Assembly: GCA_021798355.1 (NCBI GenBank)
Contig: JAJZMG010000001.1
Coordinates: forward strand, 1-42,803
Length of the DNA: 42,803 nucleotides
Reading direction: 5' to 3'
Origin: Nanobdellota archaeon
Lineage (GTDB): Archaea; Nanobdellota; Nanobdellia; Parvarchaeales; Parvarchaeaceae
The position numbers and the translations under genes are program-made. Shown here piece after piece: positions 16,196 through 38,750 of this stretch. The stretch's first letter is position 1. Each line of letters starts with the position of its first letter. Under the pieces are notes generated by a model. It saw nothing but the letters and a program-made list of their open reading frames with translations, searched no databases and was not told the origin of the DNA.

Positions 16196-17923
16196 ATGAC
16201 AGAGTATATACTAAATAGCAAGTTCAACGACCCGTTCAATAAGGTTCAATTCGGAGTTTCTATAGGAGAAAGAAATCAGCTAGAAGAGTTTTCTAAAGTT
16301 CTAAGAAGCGGTGCAAAGATGGTTGAGGTTGATATAGCAAGTGTATATGGTTTAGGCGGAGAGCAGGGCAATGCCGCTGATACTATCGGCAAGACCGAAA
16401 GAGAAGCAATAGCCAATCTTGCAAAGACAAATGATGTTGATTTGAGCGTTCATGCTCCTTGGGCAATAAACTTTTCAGGTATAGATCCGCAGTCTAGAGC
16501 TAAATCCGAGATATATGAACACGCTGTTGAAAGGGAGATTAGTACTGCTCTGGAGTTTGCTGATGATATAAGCAAAAAGATCGGTAGACAAAATATGCCG
16601 GTTATTTTTCATGCTTCTTCTGATCAGCTTTCAGATCCAGATAAAAATTTGGTTTATTCAGTTTATGACCAAAAGGATGAAAAGGTTCTTCAGATCCCCA
16701 AGCAGGAGATCGAATTAGGTATAGACAAAAACACATTAAGTAATCCTGATGAAATAAAAAAGCTGGCATTGCAGAAGTTTAGGGATATCTATGGAGAAAG
16801 TTTCTATCAAAAAGTTTTTGAAAACGATGATAATAAGAAACTCGGATTCGTTTCTGACGATGGTAAAGTAATACTAAATCCAGAAGGTTCGCTTGAATTT
16901 CAGAAAAAGAATATATCACAGCAGCTTAATCAGGAGAGGGCAAGCCTCAACATAAGTTTAAGGAATCTCGAATATCAAGAGACTGACCTTTTAGCTAGAC
17001 TCAGTCTTGCAAAGGCAAGATCTGATAAAAAAGACTTTGAAAAAACTCAGAAAGACCTTGAAAATATACAAGAGATGGTTAAAAATCTAAATCAAAAATA
17101 TTCCGAGCTTGAAATCGACGAAAAAAATCTTGCTACTAGGTTTGTACCGTATGATAAAAAGGCACCAGAACTTGCTGCTGAGGGAATAACGAAAGCTGCA
17201 ATGTTCTCTTATAACCATACTCAGTCAAAGCCAATGATACTTGTTGAAAACCCCATGTCTCCAGAAATGTCACTAAGTGATCCTAGGGACACAGCAGAAG
17301 CAGTAAGAATAGCAAGAGAGCAATTTGCAAAAGAGCTTCATGAAAAACAGCATTTGTCGCTTAAAGAAGCAGAACGGGTAAGCAGCGATCTTATAGGCAT
17401 AAATTTGGATGTAGGCCATATAAATGTCTTTAAATCCTACATAAATCCAAAGACCGGACAACTGTACTCCGATAAAGATATAGTCGAAATGGCAAAATCT
17501 GCAGGAGATTATTTAAAAAGATACCACTTAAATGATAATATGGGAAATAAAGACAGCCATCTCCCTTTAGGCCAGGGAAACGCTCCAATAAAAGAGATTT
17601 ATGATGCAATGATGGATAAAGGATTAGATGTTCCTGCTATAATGGAGGTTTTCGGTGGATTGGGAGGACTTGAAGGTGGAACGATTCAGTCACTTCAGTA
17701 CATGGGCGCTCCTTTATATGGAAATCTGCCTTATATGTCTCTGCCTTCTTATCTGGGCCAGCCGTACTCCTCAATAATAGGAGATTATTCCTCCTATTCT
17801 AATCTTGGATTAAAACAGGACATGTTTTCGTATGGCGGCTTTTCAGGAATATTTCCGTCAATAGGAGGAGGTTACATGGAAAATAAGGGCAATTCAGGCT
17901 TTTCGGGGGTGCCAATGGCATGA
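16196..17923 (+). CDS. AP-endonuclease-2/xylose-isomerase-like TIM-barrel protein (Endo IV-like metal ligands) with a large coiled-coil insertion and low-complexity tail
   Basis: 575 aa. Ordered motifs VHAPW, IFHAS, LVENP, LDVGH, YHLNDN..KDSH.PLGQG and AIMEV match the Endo IV-type metal-ligand series. About 200 aa of charged heptad-like sequence interrupts the barrel between the FHAS and VEN blocks. The last roughly 85 aa are G/S/Y-rich. Confidence 0.6.
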   Translation: MTEYILNSKFNDPFNKVQFGVSIGERNQLEEFSKVLRSGAKMVEVDIASVYGLGGEQGNAADTIGKTEREAIANLAKTNDVDLSVHAPWAINFSGIDPQSRAKSEIYEHAVEREISTALEFADDISKKIGRQNMPVIFHASSDQLSDPDKNLVYSVYDQKDEKVLQIPKQEIELGIDKNTLSNPDEIKKLALQKFRDIYGESFYQKVFENDDNKKLGFVSDDGKVILNPEGSLEFQKKNISQQLNQERASLNISLRNLEYQETDLLARLSLAKARSDKKDFEKTQKDLENIQEMVKNLNQKYSELEIDEKNLATRFVPYDKKAPELAAEGITKAAMFSYNHTQSKPMILVENPMSPEMSLSDPRDTAEAVRIAREQFAKELHEKQHLSLKEAERVSSDLIGINLDVGHINVFKSYINPKTGQLYSDKDIVEMAKSAGDYLKRYHLNDNMGNKDSHLPLGQGNAPIKEIYDAMMDKGLDVPAIMEVFGGLGGLEGGTIQSLQYMGAPLYGNLPYMSLPSYLGQPYSSIIGDYSSYSNLGLKQDMFSYGGFSGIFPSIGGGYMENKGNSGFSGVPMA

Positions 17924-19620: not shown

Positions 19621-19629
19621 TATTTAAAT
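19621..19629 (+). promoter_or_regulatory. TATA box (TATTTAAAT) for the pilin gene at 19653
   Basis: It starts 32 nt upstream of the ATG and is preceded by a purine-rich AAAAGGAAA (BRE-like). This spacing implies a leaderless or very short-leader mRNA. Confidence 0.45.
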
Positions 19630-19652: not shown

Positions 19653-20039
19653 ATGGTTTTAAACAGGAAAGCGCAGGGTTTGCCTATCAATACGATTATA
19701 CTTATTGCAGTAGGTCTGCTTATACTTGTTCTATTAGTTACTTTCGTATTAGGAGGGTTTAAAGGGTTAAGCGGTGGCGCGAGTAGTGGTAACAGCGCTG
19801 TTAGTGCCTTTGAAGCACAGTGTCAAACAACTGCTTCTTCTGCCGCCTCGTCAGGTTCGTTTCCTTACGGTTGGTGTTCTGCAACAATGACAGAATCTAA
19901 TGGTAAAGTTTTATGGTGTTACACTAATCCATCAAGTTTAACTAATACCACAACTACGACTTTGTACAATGGGTCTGTGTTGGCAGCGCCTCTTCCTATA
20001 GGTAACTCGCCTGCTCCTAACACAGTTTATTGTCCATAG
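19653..20039 (+). CDS. Archaeal type IV pilin (class III signal peptide)
   Basis: 128 aa. The N-terminus MVLNRKAQG/LPINTIILIAVGLLILVLLV is followed by a Ser/Thr/Cys-containing mature domain with NTT and NGS sequons. Confidence 0.75.
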   Translation: MVLNRKAQGLPINTIILIAVGLLILVLLVTFVLGGFKGLSGGASSGNSAVSAFEAQCQTTASSAASSGSFPYGWCSATMTESNGKVLWCYTNPSSLTNTTTTTLYNGSVLAAPLPIGNSPAPNTVYCP

Positions 20040-20087: not shown

Positions 20088-20723
20088 ATGAAGAGAAGAT
20101 CTGTTATGACTAATGTGTTGGTGGCCGTCCTTCTAATAATAATTCTAGCGGCTATATTTTACGCATTTAAAACGCACATAGTGCTTTTCAATTCGTGCTA
20201 TTTTTCAAATGAAACTTTGGCAGTAAACGGTTCCGGGCCATTCTGCCTGCCAAACAACGGCGTCAACATAATAATAAACAGTTCTATACTTTCGTATTAT
20301 CCAAACTCTACTTTGGCCATACATAATCAGAATGTTTCTGCTTTGCCTTTCTCGTTTTTAAATGGTAAACCTTTGATAACCATATGGAATGAGCCTACCT
20401 CATTATCCTTAGATTCATATTCTTTTCTGACAATCCCAGATACTTTCAAGGTACACATGGATTATAATGCTTCTGTAACTACCTATTTCGCTGTCATGAC
20501 CAATCAGCAGTATGTTAACTGGGTAAACACAAAAACCCTGAAGAATAATTATGTATCTCTGCAAACAGGCAAAAATATCTCATTTTGGTTTAATGAAAGC
20601 ACAGGGTGTGCAGGGTATGTAGCAATAATTGAATCCGTTTCTGGTAGTACGGTAACTATCTCCCCTGATGAGAAGATATTGTATGATCCTGCAAGTTCTC
20701 CTACTGGAGCATGTGCTGGCTAA
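20088..20723 (+). CDS. N-terminally anchored extracellular protein rich in N-glycosylation sequons
   Basis: 211 aa with a single N-terminal transmembrane helix (VLVAVLLIIILAAIFYAF). There are at least eight N-x-S/T sequons (NET, NGS, NSS, NST, NVS, NAS, NIS, NES) and paired cysteines. Confidence 0.55.
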   Translation: MKRRSVMTNVLVAVLLIIILAAIFYAFKTHIVLFNSCYFSNETLAVNGSGPFCLPNNGVNIIINSSILSYYPNSTLAIHNQNVSALPFSFLNGKPLITIWNEPTSLSLDSYSFLTIPDTFKVHMDYNASVTTYFAVMTNQQYVNWVNTKTLKNNYVSLQTGKNISFWFNESTGCAGYVAIIESVSGSTVTISPDEKILYDPASSPTGACAG

Positions 20724-20762
20724 AAAGGTCAATTTTAAATTCTTTAAAATGTATCATATAAC

Positions 20763-21374
20763 ATGGAAATTGATATTTTCGATGCAGTAAATGAGCTAAA
20801 GAGCTTTTATGATGAGAATGCGCCCCTTTCAAAAATAAGTGGTTTAATAACATATAAAAAGGCGTCAATAGGGCTTGAATATAAAGAAGGAGTAATAAAC
20901 TTAAAAGCCCAACATCCTCTAAATATTAAGATATATAAAATATATAACATCTTGATAAGACTTTTCCTTGTAAAATCAGTAAAACTTACCATTGACTTTA
21001 TTGAAAATAATCAACAGAAAACGGTATCAAAGCAATTTGGTTCCGATGAAAATATAGATCCGGTTATAGAGGATCTTAAGGGGTTACCGCATGACAGGAT
21101 AGTAGATATAGTAATAGATACCGATTATTTTAAGATAGTTGAAACACAAGACATGAGCGATAATGTCTCTATAATGCTTAAAAAGAATGGTAAAAAAGAG
21201 CTGTTTAAAAGCCTTTCAAACTATCTTTTTCCATTTATAAATTTTCCAGCAAATGAATCTCTATTAGAAGAAATAAACTTTTCAAAACAGGATGACCAAT
21301 TAACCGTGGATATTTTAATGAAAGTTGACGGGTCTCCAATGGGCATTAAATCAAAAAAGGTTAAATTAGTATAA
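20763..21374 (+). CDS. Hypothetical cytoplasmic protein, first gene of the KaiC-like/GTPase/Roadblock cluster
   Basis: 203 aa with no recognisable motif. Its stop is separated by a single nucleotide from the next start, which implies co-translation with the KaiC-like gene. Confidence 0.5.
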   Translation: MEIDIFDAVNELKSFYDENAPLSKISGLITYKKASIGLEYKEGVINLKAQHPLNIKIYKIYNILIRLFLVKSVKLTIDFIENNQQKTVSKQFGSDENIDPVIEDLKGLPHDRIVDIVIDTDYFKIVETQDMSDNVSIMLKKNGKKELFKSLSNYLFPFINFPANESLLEEINFSKQDDQLTVDILMKVDGSPMGIKSKKVKLV

Positions 21375-21375
21375 T

Positions 21376-22044
21376 ATGGAAGGGATAAAAACAGGTTTTA
21401 AAAATTTTGATCAGCTTACAAACGGATTAGATTATAGAAAGGTGTACTCTCTTTTTGGAGATAAAGAATCGGGAAAAGAGCAGTTTTTGTATAAGCTTGT
21501 TCAATCGGCACTTTCCTCCAACATTGCAGTAGTCTACGTATTAACCTCCAAATCCTATTCAGAGTTAATAAACGAATTCAATTCCAGAGGTATAAATATA
21601 AATCCTTACTTGGGAGAGTCTTTCAAAATATTAGATGATTTCAGTAGAACCAATTCTCCAAGTGCTACCGATAATGCATACGCTAAGATACTAAATGGGC
21701 CAATTGATTTAACAGGGCTATCGGTTTCACTTTCCAGCGTAAACAGTGATTTTATAAAGGACGCTAAACCGGTTATAAATATCTTCGACAACTTGTCAAA
21801 TCTTTTAATTTATAACAACCCTGTAACAGTCTATAGGTTTCTGCAATTTGTGTGCGGCAAAGATAAATTAGCAGGTGTCACTATTCTGTTCTCTGTGGAT
21901 ACTGCGATGCACCCTCCAGAAGTTATAGAAACCATAAAGAACTTATCAGATGCTATACTGGATTTGAAACTTCAAGACGGCAAACGGTATTTTAAACTTT
22001 CAGGAACAACCAAAGAAGTTCTTGAGTTTAAGGAGCTTGAATGA
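21376..22044 (+). CDS. KaiC/RecA-superfamily ATPase-like protein (single domain, atypical Walker A)
   Basis: 222 aa. GIKTGFKNFDQLTNGL...VYSLFGDKESGKEQFLYKLV follows the KaiC/RadA-like N-terminal pattern. Walker A is GDKESGKE, with Glu where Ser/Thr is expected. The Walker B-like strand is VINIFDNLS. Confidence 0.65.
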   Translation: MEGIKTGFKNFDQLTNGLDYRKVYSLFGDKESGKEQFLYKLVQSALSSNIAVVYVLTSKSYSELINEFNSRGININPYLGESFKILDDFSRTNSPSATDNAYAKILNGPIDLTGLSVSLSSVNSDFIKDAKPVINIFDNLSNLLIYNNPVTVYRFLQFVCGKDKLAGVTILFSVDTAMHPPEVIETIKNLSDAILDLKLQDGKRYFKLSGTTKEVLEFKELE

Positions 22045-22046
22045 TA

Positions 22047-22055
22047 TATTTAAAA
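22047..22055 (+). promoter_or_regulatory. TATA box (TATTTAAAA) for the KaiC-like::GTPase fusion gene
   Basis: It starts 31 nt upstream of the ATG at 22078. The same TATTTAAA core appears upstream of neighbouring genes. Confidence 0.4.
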
Positions 22056-22077
22056 GTAATAATCTCTATATGTTTAT

Positions 22078-23319
22078 ATGGCATACTATAAAGGGTTAGA
22101 TGGGGTATCTGAAGAAGACTTGGACCCTTACTTTGGTATAGCTAAATTGGATGAACAGTTAAAAGGCATACCTCCTAAAAAAGTAGTGTTAATATCAGCA
22201 TCTCCTTCAGTAGGTAACGAAGTATTCGGTTATCAAATAATACATAAAAATATAACTTCAGGGGTAAAAGTACTTGTATTTCTTAATAGGACCTCTCCTC
22301 AATCTTATCTTACTGACATGAAGGAATATGATTTTCCTCCAAATGATAATCTAGTTATAATAGACGCTTACAGCGGTATAACCGGAATAAAATCCGAGGA
22401 AACAGACCATATACGAGTTATAAATAATCCTTATGACAAGGAGGAAGTAAAAACAAAAATAATAAAAGAGCTTAACGAAGGATACGGATTGTTAGTAATA
22501 GACTCTTTTTCGCTACTTGCTGACTTCTTTGATTTTTCCTTTGCCATCTCATTCATGAACGATATAAAGCAGGTTATAGTGGCTAAGGAGTCTGCTGCAG
22601 TACTTCTTTTCACTGACTGGGGTTATGAAAAGCAGAATGTTGATAAATTACTTTCTAATGTTAATTCAACAATAGAAATTAAGGGCATAGAAAAGAGGGT
22701 AATCTTTGGTCAGTACTTTGCAGTTCTAAAATGCGATTGGCTTGAAGAAAAACCAACATTTTCATCAGTTCTGTTCAAGGCAATTAAGCCGGGAGGGATA
22801 AGAGTTTATTTCCCTAAGATTTTGGTCACAGGTCCAACGGATGCTGGTAAAAGCTCATTTATACACAGTGCTTCTAAGAACGCTGTTAGCGTAGATAAAC
22901 TTGGAGGAACTATCGCACTAGACCACGGAACAGTTGATTTTGAGGGCTATCGTGCGGACTTATTTGGAACTCCTGGACAGGAAAGATTTGATCCCCTGCT
23001 TAAAATGCTTGGAGGAGAAGCAATCGGTGTATTCCTTGTAGTAGATTCGACCAAACCAGAGCAATTTCCAAGGGCAGTGGAAATGCTTAGAAAAACTGAA
23101 ACTTACGGTTTGCCTGTAGTAGTAATTGCAAACAAAGCAGATCTTAAAGGTGCGCTAAAAAAGGAGGAATTACGTGAAAAACTTCACTTGGATTCTGCGA
23201 TAACTTTAGTGCAAACCGTAGCGGAAGATCTTTCAAAAGTAGATCCAAATGAACCTACAAAATTAAAGGAGGTTAATATTCACGAGGCATTATCCGCCTT
23301 ATTTAAACAATTAACATAA
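22078..23319 (+). CDS. Fusion protein: degenerate KaiC/RecA-like domain (no P-loop lysine) plus MglA/CvnD-type (COG2229-like) small GTPase
   Basis: 413 aa. The N-terminal roughly 230 aa follow a KaiC-like pattern (KLDEQLKGIP...VVLISASPSVGNEVFGYQII; LLVIDSFSLL) but Walker A is ASPSVGNE. The C-terminal part has G1 GPTDAGKSS, G3 FGTPGQERF and G4 ANKAD. Confidence 0.7.
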   Translation: MAYYKGLDGVSEEDLDPYFGIAKLDEQLKGIPPKKVVLISASPSVGNEVFGYQIIHKNITSGVKVLVFLNRTSPQSYLTDMKEYDFPPNDNLVIIDAYSGITGIKSEETDHIRVINNPYDKEEVKTKIIKELNEGYGLLVIDSFSLLADFFDFSFAISFMNDIKQVIVAKESAAVLLFTDWGYEKQNVDKLLSNVNSTIEIKGIEKRVIFGQYFAVLKCDWLEEKPTFSSVLFKAIKPGGIRVYFPKILVTGPTDAGKSSFIHSASKNAVSVDKLGGTIALDHGTVDFEGYRADLFGTPGQERFDPLLKMLGGEAIGVFLVVDSTKPEQFPRAVEMLRKTETYGLPVVVIANKADLKGALKKEELREKLHLDSAITLVQTVAEDLSKVDPNEPTKLKEVNIHEALSALFKQLT

Positions 23320-23320
23320 T

Positions 23321-23329
23321 TATTTAAAT
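23321..23329 (+). promoter_or_regulatory. TATA box (TATTTAAAT) for the Roadblock/LC7 gene
   Basis: It starts 29 nt upstream of the ATG at 23350. Confidence 0.4.
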
Positions 23330-23349
23330 GAGAAACTTATAAATTAAAT

Positions 23350-23724
23350 ATGGCTACAAAATCGGAACAGTTAAAAAGCGTTTTACAGCGGTTGAGTACC
23401 GTTGGTGGTATTAAAGCATCTGCGGTTATATCCTCTAATGGTTTGCCGATGGTATCTTTAATGCCAGAAGACGTAGATCCTAATACTTTCGCTGCAATGT
23501 TGGCTTCAATGGTTGGATCAGCAGAAACAGCTATTAAATCGTTAGGCTCAAAGAATACCCTAGAGAGAGTAGTCGCAGAATCTAAAGATATAAGAGTAGT
23601 GGCTGTGCAAGCAGGAACAGACGCAATACTTACAATAATGATTGATCCAAATACAAATTATGGTTTGATTCTTTTGGAATCTTCTAAGGCGTCGACAGAA
23701 ATTGCGGGAATAATGAAGCAGTAA
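23350..23724 (+). CDS. Roadblock/LC7 (MglB-like) domain protein
   Basis: 124 aa. GGIKASAVISSNGLPMVSLMPEDVDPNTFAAMLASMVGSAE......VVAESKDIRVVAV is the typical Roadblock/LC7 pattern. It lies immediately downstream of the GTPase. Confidence 0.8.
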   Translation: MATKSEQLKSVLQRLSTVGGIKASAVISSNGLPMVSLMPEDVDPNTFAAMLASMVGSAETAIKSLGSKNTLERVVAESKDIRVVAVQAGTDAILTIMIDPNTNYGLILLESSKASTEIAGIMKQ

Positions 23725-23733
23725 TTAACTTGG

Positions 23734-24144
23734 ATGTCACTTGTTCTTTTCATTTGCAAATACAATAACGGTAGAAGCCAGGTAGCGGAAGCCTTTTTTA
23801 ATAACCTTGCTAAGGAGCACAACTCCATAAGTGCAGCAGGCAGCTCAGTCGGCAAAGGAATAAATTCTTTAGACATAAAATTAATGAAGGAAAAATTTGG
23901 GATAGATATGAGCAGGCAGTTTCCAAAGCCCCCTTCCGATGATTTACTAAAAAATGCGGATAAAATAATAATAGTCTGTGATCCTAAGGACTGCATACTT
24001 ATACCAAAAAGCTATGTAGAGAAGGCAGAGCATTGGCATATTCCTGAATTGGATGGCCGTTCTGTCGAAGAGAAAGTGAAAATAATGGAAGAGATTCAAC
24101 AAAAGGTTAAAGAACTAATTTCAGAGTTAGCTGGGGAAAAATAA
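23734..24144 (+). CDS. Low-molecular-weight phosphotyrosine phosphatase family protein, ArsC-like (thioredoxin-type arsenate reductase) cysteine pattern
   Basis: 136 aa with the Cx5R(S) P-loop VLFICKYNNGRSQ. A second Cys pair (VCDPKDC) sits about where Cys82/Cys89 lie in Staphylococcus-type ArsC. Confidence 0.7.
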   Translation: MSLVLFICKYNNGRSQVAEAFFNNLAKEHNSISAAGSSVGKGINSLDIKLMKEKFGIDMSRQFPKPPSDDLLKNADKIIIVCDPKDCILIPKSYVEKAEHWHIPELDGRSVEEKVKIMEEIQQKVKELISELAGEK

Positions 24145-24501: not shown

Positions 24502-24585
24502 GCTCAGGTTGCGTAACCTGGCATCGCGTAAGCCTGGAGAGCTTATGGGAGCAATCCCTTGAGGGTCCGAATCCCTCCCTGAGCG
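24502..24585 (+). tRNA. tRNA-Ser (anticodon GGA), class II with long variable arm
   Basis: Hand-folded. The acceptor is GCUCAGG/CCUGAGC with discriminator G. The anticodon stem is UAAGC/GCUUA with loop CU-GGA-GA. The variable arm is GGGA-GCAA-UCCC. The T stem is GAGGG/CCCUC with loop UCCGAAU. No CCA is encoded and there is no intron. Confidence 0.85.
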
Positions 24586-24766
24586 CTTTCTTTATTTTTA
24601 TATTTTTTATGCTATATTTTGTTAACTACTACAGCTTTTGCATATGGCTTCCAGTTCTTAGGAAAATGTTGTTCCTCCATGTACATACCTGTTGGTTCCT
24701 TACAAATAACACTTTACTAATCGCTTTTGAAGATATAATCCGCAGTGGACTTGTTAAAATCGACAT

Positions 24767-27670: not shown

Positions 27671-28111
27671 TTAACAACTTGAATAATCTAATTTATAGCC
27701 TTTGCCCGCAGTTACTTTTGTTATGTAAGGTTTTGTGGTCGAGGTGCTATTGGCACATTCTTCTCCCGCGGGTAATAGTATTGGATATGCTTCTAACGAG
27801 TAATTTCCCTTCTCAGAAACTGCGTTTATACTACTATTTATGTAAGCAGAATAATTCTGTCCATTATAATTTATTGTCCAGCTATACGCTTGGTTTTTAA
27901 AACTTCCACAATAAGAACTGCAATTATATGCTGTAAAGTTGGTTGTAAATTCTGTAGGTAAACTGTTGTTAAATCCAGAGGTAACTTTTCCTATGCCTCC
28001 CAGGTTAGTTACTATGTAACTCCTTATTGCAGAGTCAAATACGACAAGTATTATTATTGCTATTACTGCAGTTATTAATACAAATGCACTAAAATTTATT
28101 TGGCCTTTCAT
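27671..28111 (-). CDS. Archaeal type IV pilin-like protein (class III signal peptide)
   Basis: 146 aa. The N-terminus MKGQ/INFSAFVLITAVIAIIILVVF is followed by a mature domain with several N-x-S/T sequons and cysteines. It overlaps the upstream methyltransferase gene by ATGA. Confidence 0.7.
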   Translation of the reverse strand: MKGQINFSAFVLITAVIAIIILVVFDSAIRSYIVTNLGGIGKVTSGFNNSLPTEFTTNFTAYNCSSYCGSFKNQAYSWTINYNGQNYSAYINSSINAVSEKGNYSLEAYPILLPAGEECANSTSTTKPYITKVTAGKGYKLDYSSC

Positions 28112-37211: not shown

Positions 37212-38750
37212 ATGAGCTTGACGCATAAATCGCAATCAGCATTGGAGTACATGATGACCTATGGCTGGGCAATTTTAATTATAGTCATCGTAGCTGTAAT
37301 CCTTTACAGCATGGGAATCTTTAATCCAAGTTCCAGTATAACATTCACAAGCTCTGGTTTCTCACCCTTTACAATATCCTCAGTCATCTGCTCACAGGAT
37401 GGTTTATCATTCTCCGTTTTAGCCGGGCCAATGCCCAATGGAGCATACTCAATGTCAATAAATAGTTTTTACATAGTTTCCTCATCAGGCACAAATACCT
37501 CTAGAATAAGTTACACCTTGTCAAGTCCAATAACATTGACATCAGGAAAAACAGGAGTAATAGCAGTTCCAAATGTAGTTTGTCCTTCAGCTGGCACAAA
37601 AGTTTCCATGTCTGCCAATCTTGAGTATAGCTATTCAACAACTGCAGGCAAGGTAGTAACAAATACTACTGGCACATTGGCAGGAACTGCCACTCATGGT
37701 CCAACTTTGCCGGCAGGCATAGCATACTATTCACAGTTAACAGTATCAAACAGCCAGTCAACAGCAACCCCTTCACCATTCCAGCAGATGGTTAACTTTA
37801 CATCTAGCGATCCAGGCTGGACAAGCATATCTACTAACAATTTTGGCCAGAATGTTGAATTCTTCTATTATAATGGAACAGTCATTCCTTCTTGGCTAGA
37901 AAATTATACATCAAGTCATGCGTTATGGTGGGTAAAGGTCGGCAGCATTCCGGCTTCATCCTCAATAACAATTTACATGGGCTTTGCTTCTTCATCAACA
38001 AATTTTTTCAACACTAATGATGTAGGAGAAGCGCCACAACTTTCTTCGACATACGCAGAATATGATGATGGGGTTAATATATTTGATATATATTTTAATG
38101 GTAATGCCCCTATATCTGATTTTACTTCACCTGTAACTGGTTCAATCACTCAAACAACATCAACATTTAGTAATGGAAACACAGTTAAAGTTTTAAATTT
38201 TACAGTAACGACCCCCTACGCAGAAGCATCAAACGATGCATTCATATACGTAGCTTCATCAATTATAAATGCTCCAGATTATTATATAGGAGAGGCTAGT
38301 TTTGCCTCAGATGGTACTAACCAACCTTTTAGTGTGGTTGGATTAGGAGAAAATTCTGGTAACGGGTTATCTGATAATGTTATAACTAGTATGACCCAAT
38401 GGAATAATGCATATTTTGGGCAATCATATGTTTTAAATGGGGCTCTTTATGGCTCTTTAAATTTGCAAGGAATAACAACAGCAACTTGGAGATATTCTTC
38501 ATTAACCTATTCATCATCTTCGGGTTATAGTAGCTATATAGCTCCTCAACTATACTCAACAATAGGAGGATATTCAGGAACAATTGGGGCGAATCCTATT
38601 TCAAGTATTACACCACTTTATTTTGTTATTTATCCCGACACTTCTGTAGGCTCCGATTCTACACGAATATTAATGATAAATTGGGCTCGTGTCCGTGCCT
38701 ACCCTCCAAATGGAGTCATGCCTTCCGTGAGCTTCGGCAGCGTTTCTTAA
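37212..38750 (+). CDS. Large pilin-like surface protein: class III signal peptide plus DUF2341-like/lectin-like extracellular domains
   Basis: 512 aa. The N-terminus KSQSALEYMMTYGWAILIIVIVAVIL is the classic PF04021-type class III signal. The central block YSQLTVSNS...PFQQMVNF...NVEFFYYNGTVIPSWLENYTS.HALWWVKVGSIPASSSITIYMGF resembles DUF2341. The protein is Ser/Thr/Asn-rich with many sequons. Confidence 0.7.
   Translation: MSLTHKSQSALEYMMTYGWAILIIVIVAVILYSMGIFNPSSSITFTSSGFSPFTISSVICSQDGLSFSVLAGPMPNGAYSMSINSFYIVSSSGTNTSRISYTLSSPITLTSGKTGVIAVPNVVCPSAGTKVSMSANLEYSYSTTAGKVVTNTTGTLAGTATHGPTLPAGIAYYSQLTVSNSQSTATPSPFQQMVNFTSSDPGWTSISTNNFGQNVEFFYYNGTVIPSWLENYTSSHALWWVKVGSIPASSSITIYMGFASSSTNFFNTNDVGEAPQLSSTYAEYDDGVNIFDIYFNGNAPISDFTSPVTGSITQTTSTFSNGNTVKVLNFTVTTPYAEASNDAFIYVASSIINAPDYYIGEASFASDGTNQPFSVVGLGENSGNGLSDNVITSMTQWNNAYFGQSYVLNGALYGSLNLQGITTATWRYSSLTYSSSSGYSSYIAPQLYSTIGGYSGTIGANPISSITPLYFVIYPDTSVGSDSTRILMINWARVRAYPPNGVMPSVSFGSVS

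Follow-up and report, generated by a model that had tools for sequence, protein, structure and literature searches.

A cluster of four genes, at positions 20763 to 23724 of a 42,803-nucleotide stretch from a Nanobdellota archaeon of the acid-mine type (assembly GCA_021798355.1, contig JAJZMG010000001.1; the whole stretch is referred to below as the window), brings two KaiC-like proteins together with a small GTPase and a Roadblock/LC7 protein. We lean towards reading this locus as a conserved signalling switch of archaea in its Parvarchaeota form, with a GTPase and its Roadblock partner that would operate on inactive KaiC scaffolds. This reading draws on the folds of the proteins, the state of their motifs, the conservation of these motifs throughout the families, and the linkage of the genes. 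We label the genes g1 (unknown), g2 (single-domain KaiC-like), g3 (fusion of a pseudo-KaiC domain to a GTPase) and g4 (Roadblock/LC7).

20763-21374, plus strand: g1, 203 residues, unknown family, accessory gene specific to Parvarchaeota
21376-22044, plus strand: g2, 222 residues, single-domain KaiC/RecA fold of the DUF7504 type
22078-23319, plus strand: g3, 413 residues, inactivated KaiC-fold domain fused to an MglA-type small GTPase
23350-23724, plus strand: g4, 124 residues, Roadblock/LC7 protein, presumed regulator (GTPase-activating protein, GAP, and/or guanine nucleotide exchange factor, GEF) of the fused GTPase

All four open reading frames (ORFs) are intact. They lie on the same strand with spacers of 1 nt (g1/g2), 33 nt (g2/g3) and 30 nt (g3/g4), and a check of the ORFs found this arrangement exactly as an initial annotation, made from the letters of the window without database searches, had described it. 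The nearest relatives of the four proteins are found in Candidatus Parvarchaeota (ARMAN-type DPANN archaea), and ARMAN-4 carries the same locus, with a g3 protein that is 86% identical.

Little is understood about signal transduction in archaea. Proposals exist that KaiC-like proteins serve as its hubs, pairs of a GTPase with a Roadblock protein are widespread, and we know of no defined mechanism for either of them in these organisms. The module described here unites KaiC-like and small-GTPase signalling in one polypeptide, from DPANN archaea to methanogens and Thermoproteota. Even small DPANN genomes keep it, which suggests that it probably does something important.

Folds and motifs of the four proteins

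The domains and motifs of g3 and g2 on which the argument turns lie at the following positions.

22135-22809, plus strand: N-terminal pseudo-KaiC domain of g3 (residues 20-244)
22198-22221, plus strand: degenerate P-loop ASPSVGNE of g3 (residues 41-48), where the family consensus PGVEN replaces GxGKT
22810-23316, plus strand: C-terminal small-GTPase domain of g3 (residues 245-413)
22831-22854, 22966-22980 and 23131-23142, plus strand: G-domain motifs of g3, namely G1 (GPTDAGKS), G3 (GTPGQ) and G4 (NKAD)
21457-21480, plus strand: deviant Walker A motif GDKESGKE of g2 (residues 28-35)

Residues 20-244 of g3 match the Pfam family KaiC (PF06745) at 29.8 bits (cut-off 26.6), and the profile of the g3 family finds PH0284 (structure 2dr3) at an E value of 5.9e-22. 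The AlphaFold 2 (AF2) model of g3 (predicted local distance difference test score, pLDDT, 88.3; predicted template modelling score, pTM, 0.84) likewise led Foldseek to PH0284, with a template modelling (TM) score of 0.82 and a root-mean-square deviation of 2.8, and also to SSO2452 and FlaH, at TM scores of about 0.8. The RecA fold of g2 and g3, on which the initial annotation had let its reading stand or fall, is thus upheld by the family profiles of both proteins and, in the case of g3, by the comparison of the AF2 model with PH0284. What this domain of g3 lacks is the P-loop. In all 24 homologues that were aligned residue by residue the Lys is absent, and PGVEN or PSVGN is found instead of GxGKT. 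Other residues of the domain are strictly kept: Asp25, Pro43, Phe50, Asp96, Asp149, Trp181 and Tyr183 are invariant across an alignment of 81 g3 sequences, whose members are at least 40% identical to the window protein.

The second half of g3 is a small GTPase, since residues 247-390 give matches to the Arf, Ras and Roc domains and reach 63.7 bits against the small_GTP model TIGR00231 (cut-off 42.5). Gly252, Gly257 and Lys258 of G1, Thr278 of G2, the GxPGQ form of G3 and the Asn-Lys pair of G4 are invariant in the same 81 sequences, and switch I reads LGTT in most members of the family and LGGT in the window. This protein had initially been described as a KaiC-like domain without the P-loop Lys, joined to a GTPase with intact G1, G3 and G4. 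The loss of the Lys (ASPSVGNE) and the intactness of G1 and G4 hold, but G3 is GTPGQ and not the canonical DxxGQ. Judged by its motifs, the g3 GTPase is a member of the MglA family, of the type found in Groups 2-5. The final strand of the KaiC domain (KPGGIRVY; KPGG-I/V-x-V-Y in the family) passes into strand beta1 of the G domain (FPKILVTGP) without a linker, which argues for a fixed geometry between the two halves.

g2 was annotated from the beginning as a KaiC/RecA-like protein with the Walker A motif GDKESGKE, and both parts of this description are borne out. The protein scores above the Pfam thresholds for KaiC (PF06745; 35.5 bits, cut-off 26.6) and DUF7504 (33.6 bits, cut-off 27), its family profile finds the KaiC structure 8zn5 at an E value of 1.6e-29, and it reads LFGDKESGKEQF, which places the Walker A motif at residues 28-35, with Glu35 following Lys34. 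Of 70 homologues, 51 have an acidic residue after the P-loop Lys (GK[E/D]) and 12 have Ser or Thr there. In a set of 19 diverse homologues, Lys34, Asp87 and Arg154 never change, and the position of the Walker B Asp varies between D, N and E. The catalytic Glu-Glu pair of KaiC is replaced as well, by Thr57-Ser58 in the window and by T-d in the family consensus. When the g2 family is aligned with the N-terminal domain of g3, hhalign returns a probability of 99.7% (E 5e-27), and by this measure the two are close paralogues.

Both KaiC-fold modules, therefore, lack hydrolytic residues, yet both are under purifying selection, and the alignments identify the GK[E/D] motif and the loss of the P-loop as conserved family traits under selection, not as local decay. 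g2 probably binds nucleotide without hydrolysing it.

The assignment of g4 to the Roadblock/LC7 proteins is confirmed by 52.6 bits against Robl_LC7 (PF03259; cut-off 23). Its family profile places the archaeal Roadblock structures 9jue (4.5e-30) and 7f8m (1.7e-24) first, followed by CvnB5 (3leq, 1.3e-12) and MglB (6e-8), and it also matches the Roadblock structure 6h5b. Against the NCBIfam equivalog model for MglB, the protein failed, with 15.8 bits where 200 are needed.

g1 had been reported as lacking any recognisable motif, and indeed no match above curated thresholds was found for it in Pfam, NCBIfam or PADLOC, nor did Pfam scans of its relatives yield any. A word-based search returned 24 homologues of at least 51% identity, and all of those that carry an organism name are from Parvarchaeota, while a profile run against 1.8 billion cluster representatives gave 9 matches only. 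The AF2 model (pLDDT 89.5, pTM 0.83) has an alpha/beta architecture, for which Foldseek found nothing below an E value of 0.028 in the PDB. Two identities were considered and rejected. As a hidden Roadblock protein, g1 gave weak Foldseek matches to Roadblock/LAMTOR (E 0.04-0.18, TM below 0.3) and an hhalign probability of 1.9% against the Roadblock profile; as a V4R protein or a member of another accessory family, it gave hhalign probabilities of at most 1.9% against 25 recurrent neighbour families.

Orthologues of g1 are situated directly 5' of g2 in the loci L001-L008, L081 and L086, which represent three divergent lineages of the Parvarchaeota type. In L081, whose g3 is 50% identical to that of the window, the homologue is an ORF of 193 residues (hhalign probability 98%, E 1e-13), and in L086 it is P0150; both overlap the start of the DUF7504 gene by 4 nt. 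g1 is a lineage-specific add-on and not part of the conserved core. Two more distant relatives, P0148 (L080, 5001-5645, profile E 3e-10) and P0151 (L087, 4001-4636, profile E 9e-7), are found at places where the triad does not adjoin, and each of them is located immediately downstream of a Sec61-beta gene.

Linkage of the core genes across archaea

A search with the g3 protein returned 1113 proteins at E <= 0.001, and all 120 of those shown carry small-GTPase Pfam domains, most of them together with KaiC. Relatives of the fusion are present in at least 567 stretches of a prokaryotic collection that holds one genome per species. To count linkage, 79 loci were fetched and all their ORFs were searched with the window proteins. 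These loci come from Parvarchaeota, Woesearchaeota/Nanoarchaeia, Altiarchaeota, Methanosarcinales (including ANME-2 and Methanoperedens) and Archaeoglobaceae, and further from Methanocellales, Hydrothermarchaeales, Thermoplasmatota, Thermoproteota and Methanobacterium. A homologue of g2 is found in 70 of the 79 loci and a Roadblock homologue in 75, and in 69 the Roadblock gene adjoins the fusion. Several exceptions to the linkage are contigs that end at the gene. The reading frames of g2 and g3 overlap in 20 loci and those of g3 and g4 in 29, which suggests co-translation.

The linkage of all four genes, which the initial annotation had proposed as a test of its reading, therefore holds in part. 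In 57 of the 79 loci, which belong to many phyla, the fusion has both g2 and g4 on its own strand at distances of no more than 150 nt (55 loci keep the order g2-g3-g4), but g1 is linked in Parvarchaeota-type lineages only. The conserved unit is made up of three genes, g2-g3-g4, and not of four. This order is repeated in dozens of archaeal genomes that are not related to one another, so the arrangement is more than chance. The initial idea that impaired RecA-fold scaffolds are joined to a GTPase/Roadblock pair is thus supported by the folds, the motif losses and the linkage.

The core is found in varied company. Two contigs of the Nanoarchaeota/Woesearchaeota type (L083, 6111-11460, and L084, 7001-13188) carry expanded cassettes, one in the order TrmB, fusion, two small ORFs, V4R, Roadblock, PAS and DUF7504, the other in the order fusion, Roadblock, FIST, HAMP, Roadblock, PAS and DUF7504. 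Among 132 tightly linked genes on the same strand, counted with the known housekeeping neighbours YhbY, S19e and PDCD5-like left out, the commonest family is V4R (12 genes), followed by canonical KaiC (6); PAS and HAMP are also represented, and the remainder are lineage-restricted housekeeping genes. The accessory genes, which vary between lineages (g1 in Parvarchaeota; V4R, PAS, FIST, HAMP, TrmB and canonical KaiC elsewhere), point to signalling, and the frequent company of V4R and Roadblock proteins bears on the question of the prokaryotic roots of eukaryotic GTPase platforms.

Some of the loci are unusual in themselves. In two metagenome-assembled genomes (MAGs) of Halobacteriota (L014, 991-7158, and L021, 5276-11161), two copies of the fusion, each with Roadblock genes, are found within about 6 kb, apparently as a result of local duplication of the module. 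One locus (L060, 1939-4183) is labelled 'Anaerolineales bacterium', and it carries the archaeal triad arranged as in the Methanosarcinales contig L059; this label is probably a binning error in a public MAG.

In the window itself, the cluster is accompanied by boxes that resemble archaeal promoter elements.

20733-20740, plus strand: TATA-like box TTTTAAAT (TTTAAA at 20734-20739), about 29 nt 5' of the g1 ATG
22049-22054, plus strand: similar TTTAAA box, promoter-like motif, before g3
23323-23328, plus strand: similar TTTAAA box, promoter-like motif, before g4
19623-19628, plus strand: similar TTTAAA box, promoter-like motif, before a pilin-like gene

TTTAAA sits 27-30 nt 5' of the ATG of the pilin-like gene, g1, g3 and g4, and the spacers in front of g1, g3 and g4 measure 30-39 nt. 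A TTTAWA motif between -22 and -38 precedes 9 of the 44 genes of the window, against a background of 4.8%, and 4 of these 9 belong to the cluster. The box before g1 is kept in seven of the eight Parvarchaeota loci, and the same form is found before g4 in four of the seven loci that include this gene; L005 and L006 have a shorter box (TTTAAAT/TTTAAATT) at the same distance. Going by these motifs, which are promoter-like in their letters, the cluster may have several leaderless promoters instead of being transcribed as a single operon.

A possible mechanism and its alternatives

In the switch that we favour, the central player would be an MglA-family GTPase, permanently attached to a domain of the KaiC/RecA fold without a P-loop. 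Its partner g2, which keeps the P-loop Lys but neither the Mg-binding Ser/Thr nor the catalytic Glu pair, and which often lacks the Walker B Asp as well, would sense nucleotide rather than burn it. The RecA-fold modules of g2 and g3 could co-assemble in the fashion of KaiC, and the resulting hetero-oligomeric scaffold would hold the G domains in position; the solved homologues of the KaiC type are deposited as multi-chain entries, with 6 chains in 2dr3 and 6 or 12 in KaiC entries. A g4 dimer would dock on the switch face of the G domain and there control GTP hydrolysis and/or exchange, and it is from the analogy to MglB and CvnB that we infer a GAP (or GEF) action of g4 on the fused GTPase. 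The GTP or GDP state set by the Roadblock protein, together with the nucleotide occupancy of g2, would then decide which partner proteins are bound. These partners would depend on the lineage, with g1 in Parvarchaeota, where the pilin-like neighbours are possibly targets, and V4R, PAS, FIST, HAMP, TrmB and canonical KaiC in other lineages. The motif changes seen throughout the family (GK[E/D], the loss of the P-loop, and the intact G domain) provide clean hypotheses, namely nucleotide sensing without hydrolysis, regulation by Roadblock and a hetero-oligomeric scaffold.

Several points weigh against this reading. The parts of it that we infer are complex formation, a GAP or GEF activity, the ability of g2 to bind nucleotide, and the output; for g4 the GAP activity is an analogy, because no conserved catalytic residue is known in the Roadblock partners of MglA proteins of Groups 2-5 (PMC4316618). 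The N-terminal domain of g3 contains no invariant Arg or Lys that would be able to act in trans on the nucleotide site of g2. The Parvarchaeota loci are without any sensor domain, and in Methanosarcinales the flanking genes are housekeeping genes (YhbY, S19e, PDCD5-like, TruD), which give no hint of an output. Furthermore, given the TATA-like boxes inside the cluster, its genes need not form one transcript.

A more far-reaching version of the switch is conceivable, to which we give a minor share of our confidence. The triad would then be an ancient, pan-archaeal composite NTPase switch, that is, a hetero-oligomeric ring of two degenerate KaiC paralogues carrying several MglA-type G domains, each of them under the control of a Roadblock dimer and often of a V4R/Bet3-like protein, and g1 would be an adaptor with a new fold. 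If this is true, such a ring would be a prokaryotic platform that is mechanistically akin to Rag-Ragulator and TRAPP, and it would link the archaeal KaiC network to small-GTPase signalling.

Three genes that flank the cluster bear on some of the other explanations of the locus.

19653-20039, plus strand: pilin-like protein with a class III signal peptide (RKA/QGLPINTIILIAVG), upstream of g1 and co-directional
20088-20723, plus strand: 211-residue protein with an N-terminal membrane helix, upstream of g1 and co-directional
23734-24144, plus strand: gene of the low-molecular-weight (LMW) phosphotyrosine phosphatase/ArsC family (LMWPc 7e-15; motif CKYNNGRS), 9 nt after g4

The module might regulate the assembly or placement of type IV pili or other surface filaments, as an archaeal counterpart of the control that MglA/MglB/SofG exert on type IV pili and the KaiC-like ArlH on the archaellum motor, though we regard this as improbable. 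The pilin-like gene and the membrane-protein gene are found directly upstream and on the same strand not only in the window but in all eight Parvarchaeum-type loci. In a Nanoarchaeia locus (L082, 1-7221, on the same contig as L013), the fusion directly follows a T2SSE ATPase, a canonical KaiC, a 691-residue pilin-like adhesin and four small pilin-like genes. The report of KaiC-family ATPases and Roadblock proteins (arCOG02603) from many type IV pilus loci of archaea (Makarova et al. 2016, PMC4858521) also speaks for this explanation. However, the synteny of the eight Parvarchaeum loci (L001-L008) is weak evidence because they are closely related, and the pair is missing from the deeper Parvarchaeota locus L081, which has no pilin genes, and from most other lineages. 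A crude screen of the 79 loci for class III signal peptides yielded convincing pilin-like neighbours in two DPANN lineages only, and the window contains no gene for a pilus assembly ATPase or TadC. Since the pilin link is missing from L081 and most lineages, pilus control is a lead at the level of the lineage and not a general function; for the GTPase/Roadblock switch, the upstream pair is a possible lineage-specific output or context. As regards L082, neither an adjoining g2 nor a recognisable Roadblock gene is present there before the contig ends.

Far less probable, in our view, is a role of g2 and g3 in DNA repair or recombination, or as nucleic-acid mediators, in the manner of RadA paralogues and under the regulation of the GTPase and the Roadblock protein. 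SSO2452, which we take to be a Sulfolobus RadA paralogue, is among the closest solved structures, there are weak matches to DnaB_C and RadA, and some of the neighbouring genes are related to DNA or RNA (RNase HII, the PDCD5-like dsDNA-binding protein, HhH-GPD). These neighbours are, however, confined to related Methanosarcinales genomes, whereas those that recur across phyla are V4R, PAS, HAMP, FIST and KaiC and not repair genes, and the hydrolytic residues are missing from both domains.

The LMW phosphatase gene was considered as a member of the core and rejected, as it follows g4 only in the four closest loci (L001-L004). It also invites the thought of a phosphorylation timer or oscillator of the KaiC type, in which g2 and g3 would pass through an autophosphorylation cycle that the phosphatase resets. 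This we find hardly credible in spite of the KaiC fold and the closeness of the phosphatase gene, because g2 has no catalytic Glu pair, the N-terminal domain of g3 is without its whole P-loop, both are single domains and not a double-domain KaiC (22 bits against the NCBIfam KaiC model, which requires 408), and linkage to the phosphatase is restricted to four genomes.

The last alternative is that the genes are neighbours without a functional connection, or that they are remnants in decay within a reduced DPANN genome. The TATA-like boxes of g1, g3 and g4, and two RecA-fold domains that look catalytically dead, could be taken in this sense. ARMAN-type Parvarchaeota genomes are small, with about 1 Mb, and the retention of the module in genomes of this size argues for a function; as the adjacency is also kept across phyla, with overlapping reading frames, and the ORFs and the invariant residues of the degenerate domains (across the 81 sequences) are intact, we attach next to no weight to this explanation.

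The window is a piece of ordinary chromosome, with genes for RNA polymerase subunits, S12/S7, ThrRS, GatD/E, FtsZ and tRNAs, and a GC content of about 35%. Rfam and tRNA scans of the window found tRNAs alone, and none within the cluster; a tRNA-Ser (GGA) at 24502-24586 (plus strand) was called by ARAGORN and is not reported by the Rfam scan at gathering thresholds. A second ORF with a class III (prepilin-type) signal peptide (MKG/QINFSAFVLITAV) is found at 27671-28111 on the minus strand, and a 512-residue DUF2341 protein is encoded at 37212-38750 (plus strand). The gene at 16196-17923 (plus strand) codes for a 575-residue protein in which a xylose-isomerase-like TIM barrel (AP_endonuc_2) is matched in two separate stretches, the better of them at residues 389-502.

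Comparison with known systems

The initial annotation did not recognise this combination as a described system. This stands insofar as no characterised family with this architecture was found in the literature, but many genomes of archaea have the combination, under no other annotation than 'GTP-binding protein'. The literature that was searched contained neither a description of the fusion or of the triad nor experiments on them, although the 2017 survey of inactivated KaiC proteins may list the family.

The closest parallel for the GTPase is MglA with its partner MglB, known from Myxococcus and Thermus and, in the wider family, from Groups 2-5. Proteins of these groups are marked by a GTPGQ form of G3 and by a Thr, instead of an Arg, before the G2 Thr, and the family is defined by its coupling to MglB/Roadblock genes within a distance of four genes (Wuichet & Sogaard-Andersen 2015, PMC4316618). 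g3 shares with them the Ras-like G domain, the GTPGQ motif, the absence of an Arg before the G2 Thr, and the adjoining Roadblock gene, which in the window begins 30 nt downstream. In contrast to MglA, however, the G domain of g3 is not free-standing but is fused without a linker to a pseudo-KaiC domain of 230 residues. With 413 residues, the protein lies outside the range of 150-240 residues set for single-domain members, and the fusion fell outside the survey of the MglA family because proteins of more than 240 residues were discarded there (PMC4316618). Two further differences are that a second KaiC-like protein, g2, is an obligatory partner gene here, and that g4 does not have the C-terminal extension of MglB.

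The actinobacterial conservons (CvnA-D; mfp operon) are similar in being cassettes that combine a GTPase of the GTPGQ type (CvnD) with a Roadblock protein (CvnB). They differ from the present cluster in that it has no CvnA histidine-kinase-like sensor and no match to CvnC/DUF742, the place of sensor and adaptor being taken by the KaiC-fold parts, and in that the G4 motif of g3 is the canonical NKAD, whereas that of Group 2 is NxFD (PMC4316618). Membership in the conservons was rejected, as Pfam and NCBIfam recovered only the CvnB-like and CvnD-like parts and neither CvnA nor CvnC.

On the side of the KaiC folds, the module is reminiscent of the inactivated KaiC (iKaiC) signalling hubs of Makarova et al. 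2017, to the extent that this concept is conveyed by its citation in PMC5847659. Like ArlH/FlaH, PH0284, PH0186 and SSO2452, g2 and g3 have a single-domain KaiC/RecA fold, and as far as can be judged from that citation, they agree with iKaiC proteins in combining this fold with degenerate Walker motifs, that is, disrupted ATPase motifs, and in the linkage of the family's genes to signalling genes (PAS, FIST, HAMP, V4R, TrmB, KaiC). For the fusion with a small GTPase and the obligatory pairing with a Roadblock gene, the literature that was searched gave no parallel among these proteins.

Narrower assignments were tried and rejected. Against the ArlH and FlaH models of NCBIfam, the matches amount to 27 and 18 bits where 215 are required, and to 39 and 41 bits where 194 are required, and there are no archaellum genes in the window. 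The clock protein KaiC is set apart by the NCBIfam score already given, by the single domain of g2 with its GK-E motif, T-S in place of E-E and D/N at the Walker B position, and by the missing P-loop Lys of g3. A defence system was considered as well, but the best PADLOC matches (E 3e-4 to 7e-3) cover short P-loop stretches only.

Finally, the combination of a small GTPase with Roadblock-fold proteins resembles the eukaryotic complexes Rag-Ragulator and TRAPP, the latter through Bet3/V4R-like subunits, and V4R (Bet3-like) proteins make up the 12 linked neighbours mentioned above. These complexes, however, have no RecA-fold component, and the window has no V4R gene and no membrane-targeting feature that we could see. 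Taken together, the parts of the module are of known kinds, namely an MglA-family GTPase, a Roadblock protein and inactivated KaiC domains; as a whole, it functionally resembles MglA/MglB and the conservons, but with each of the named systems it falls short in some defining feature.

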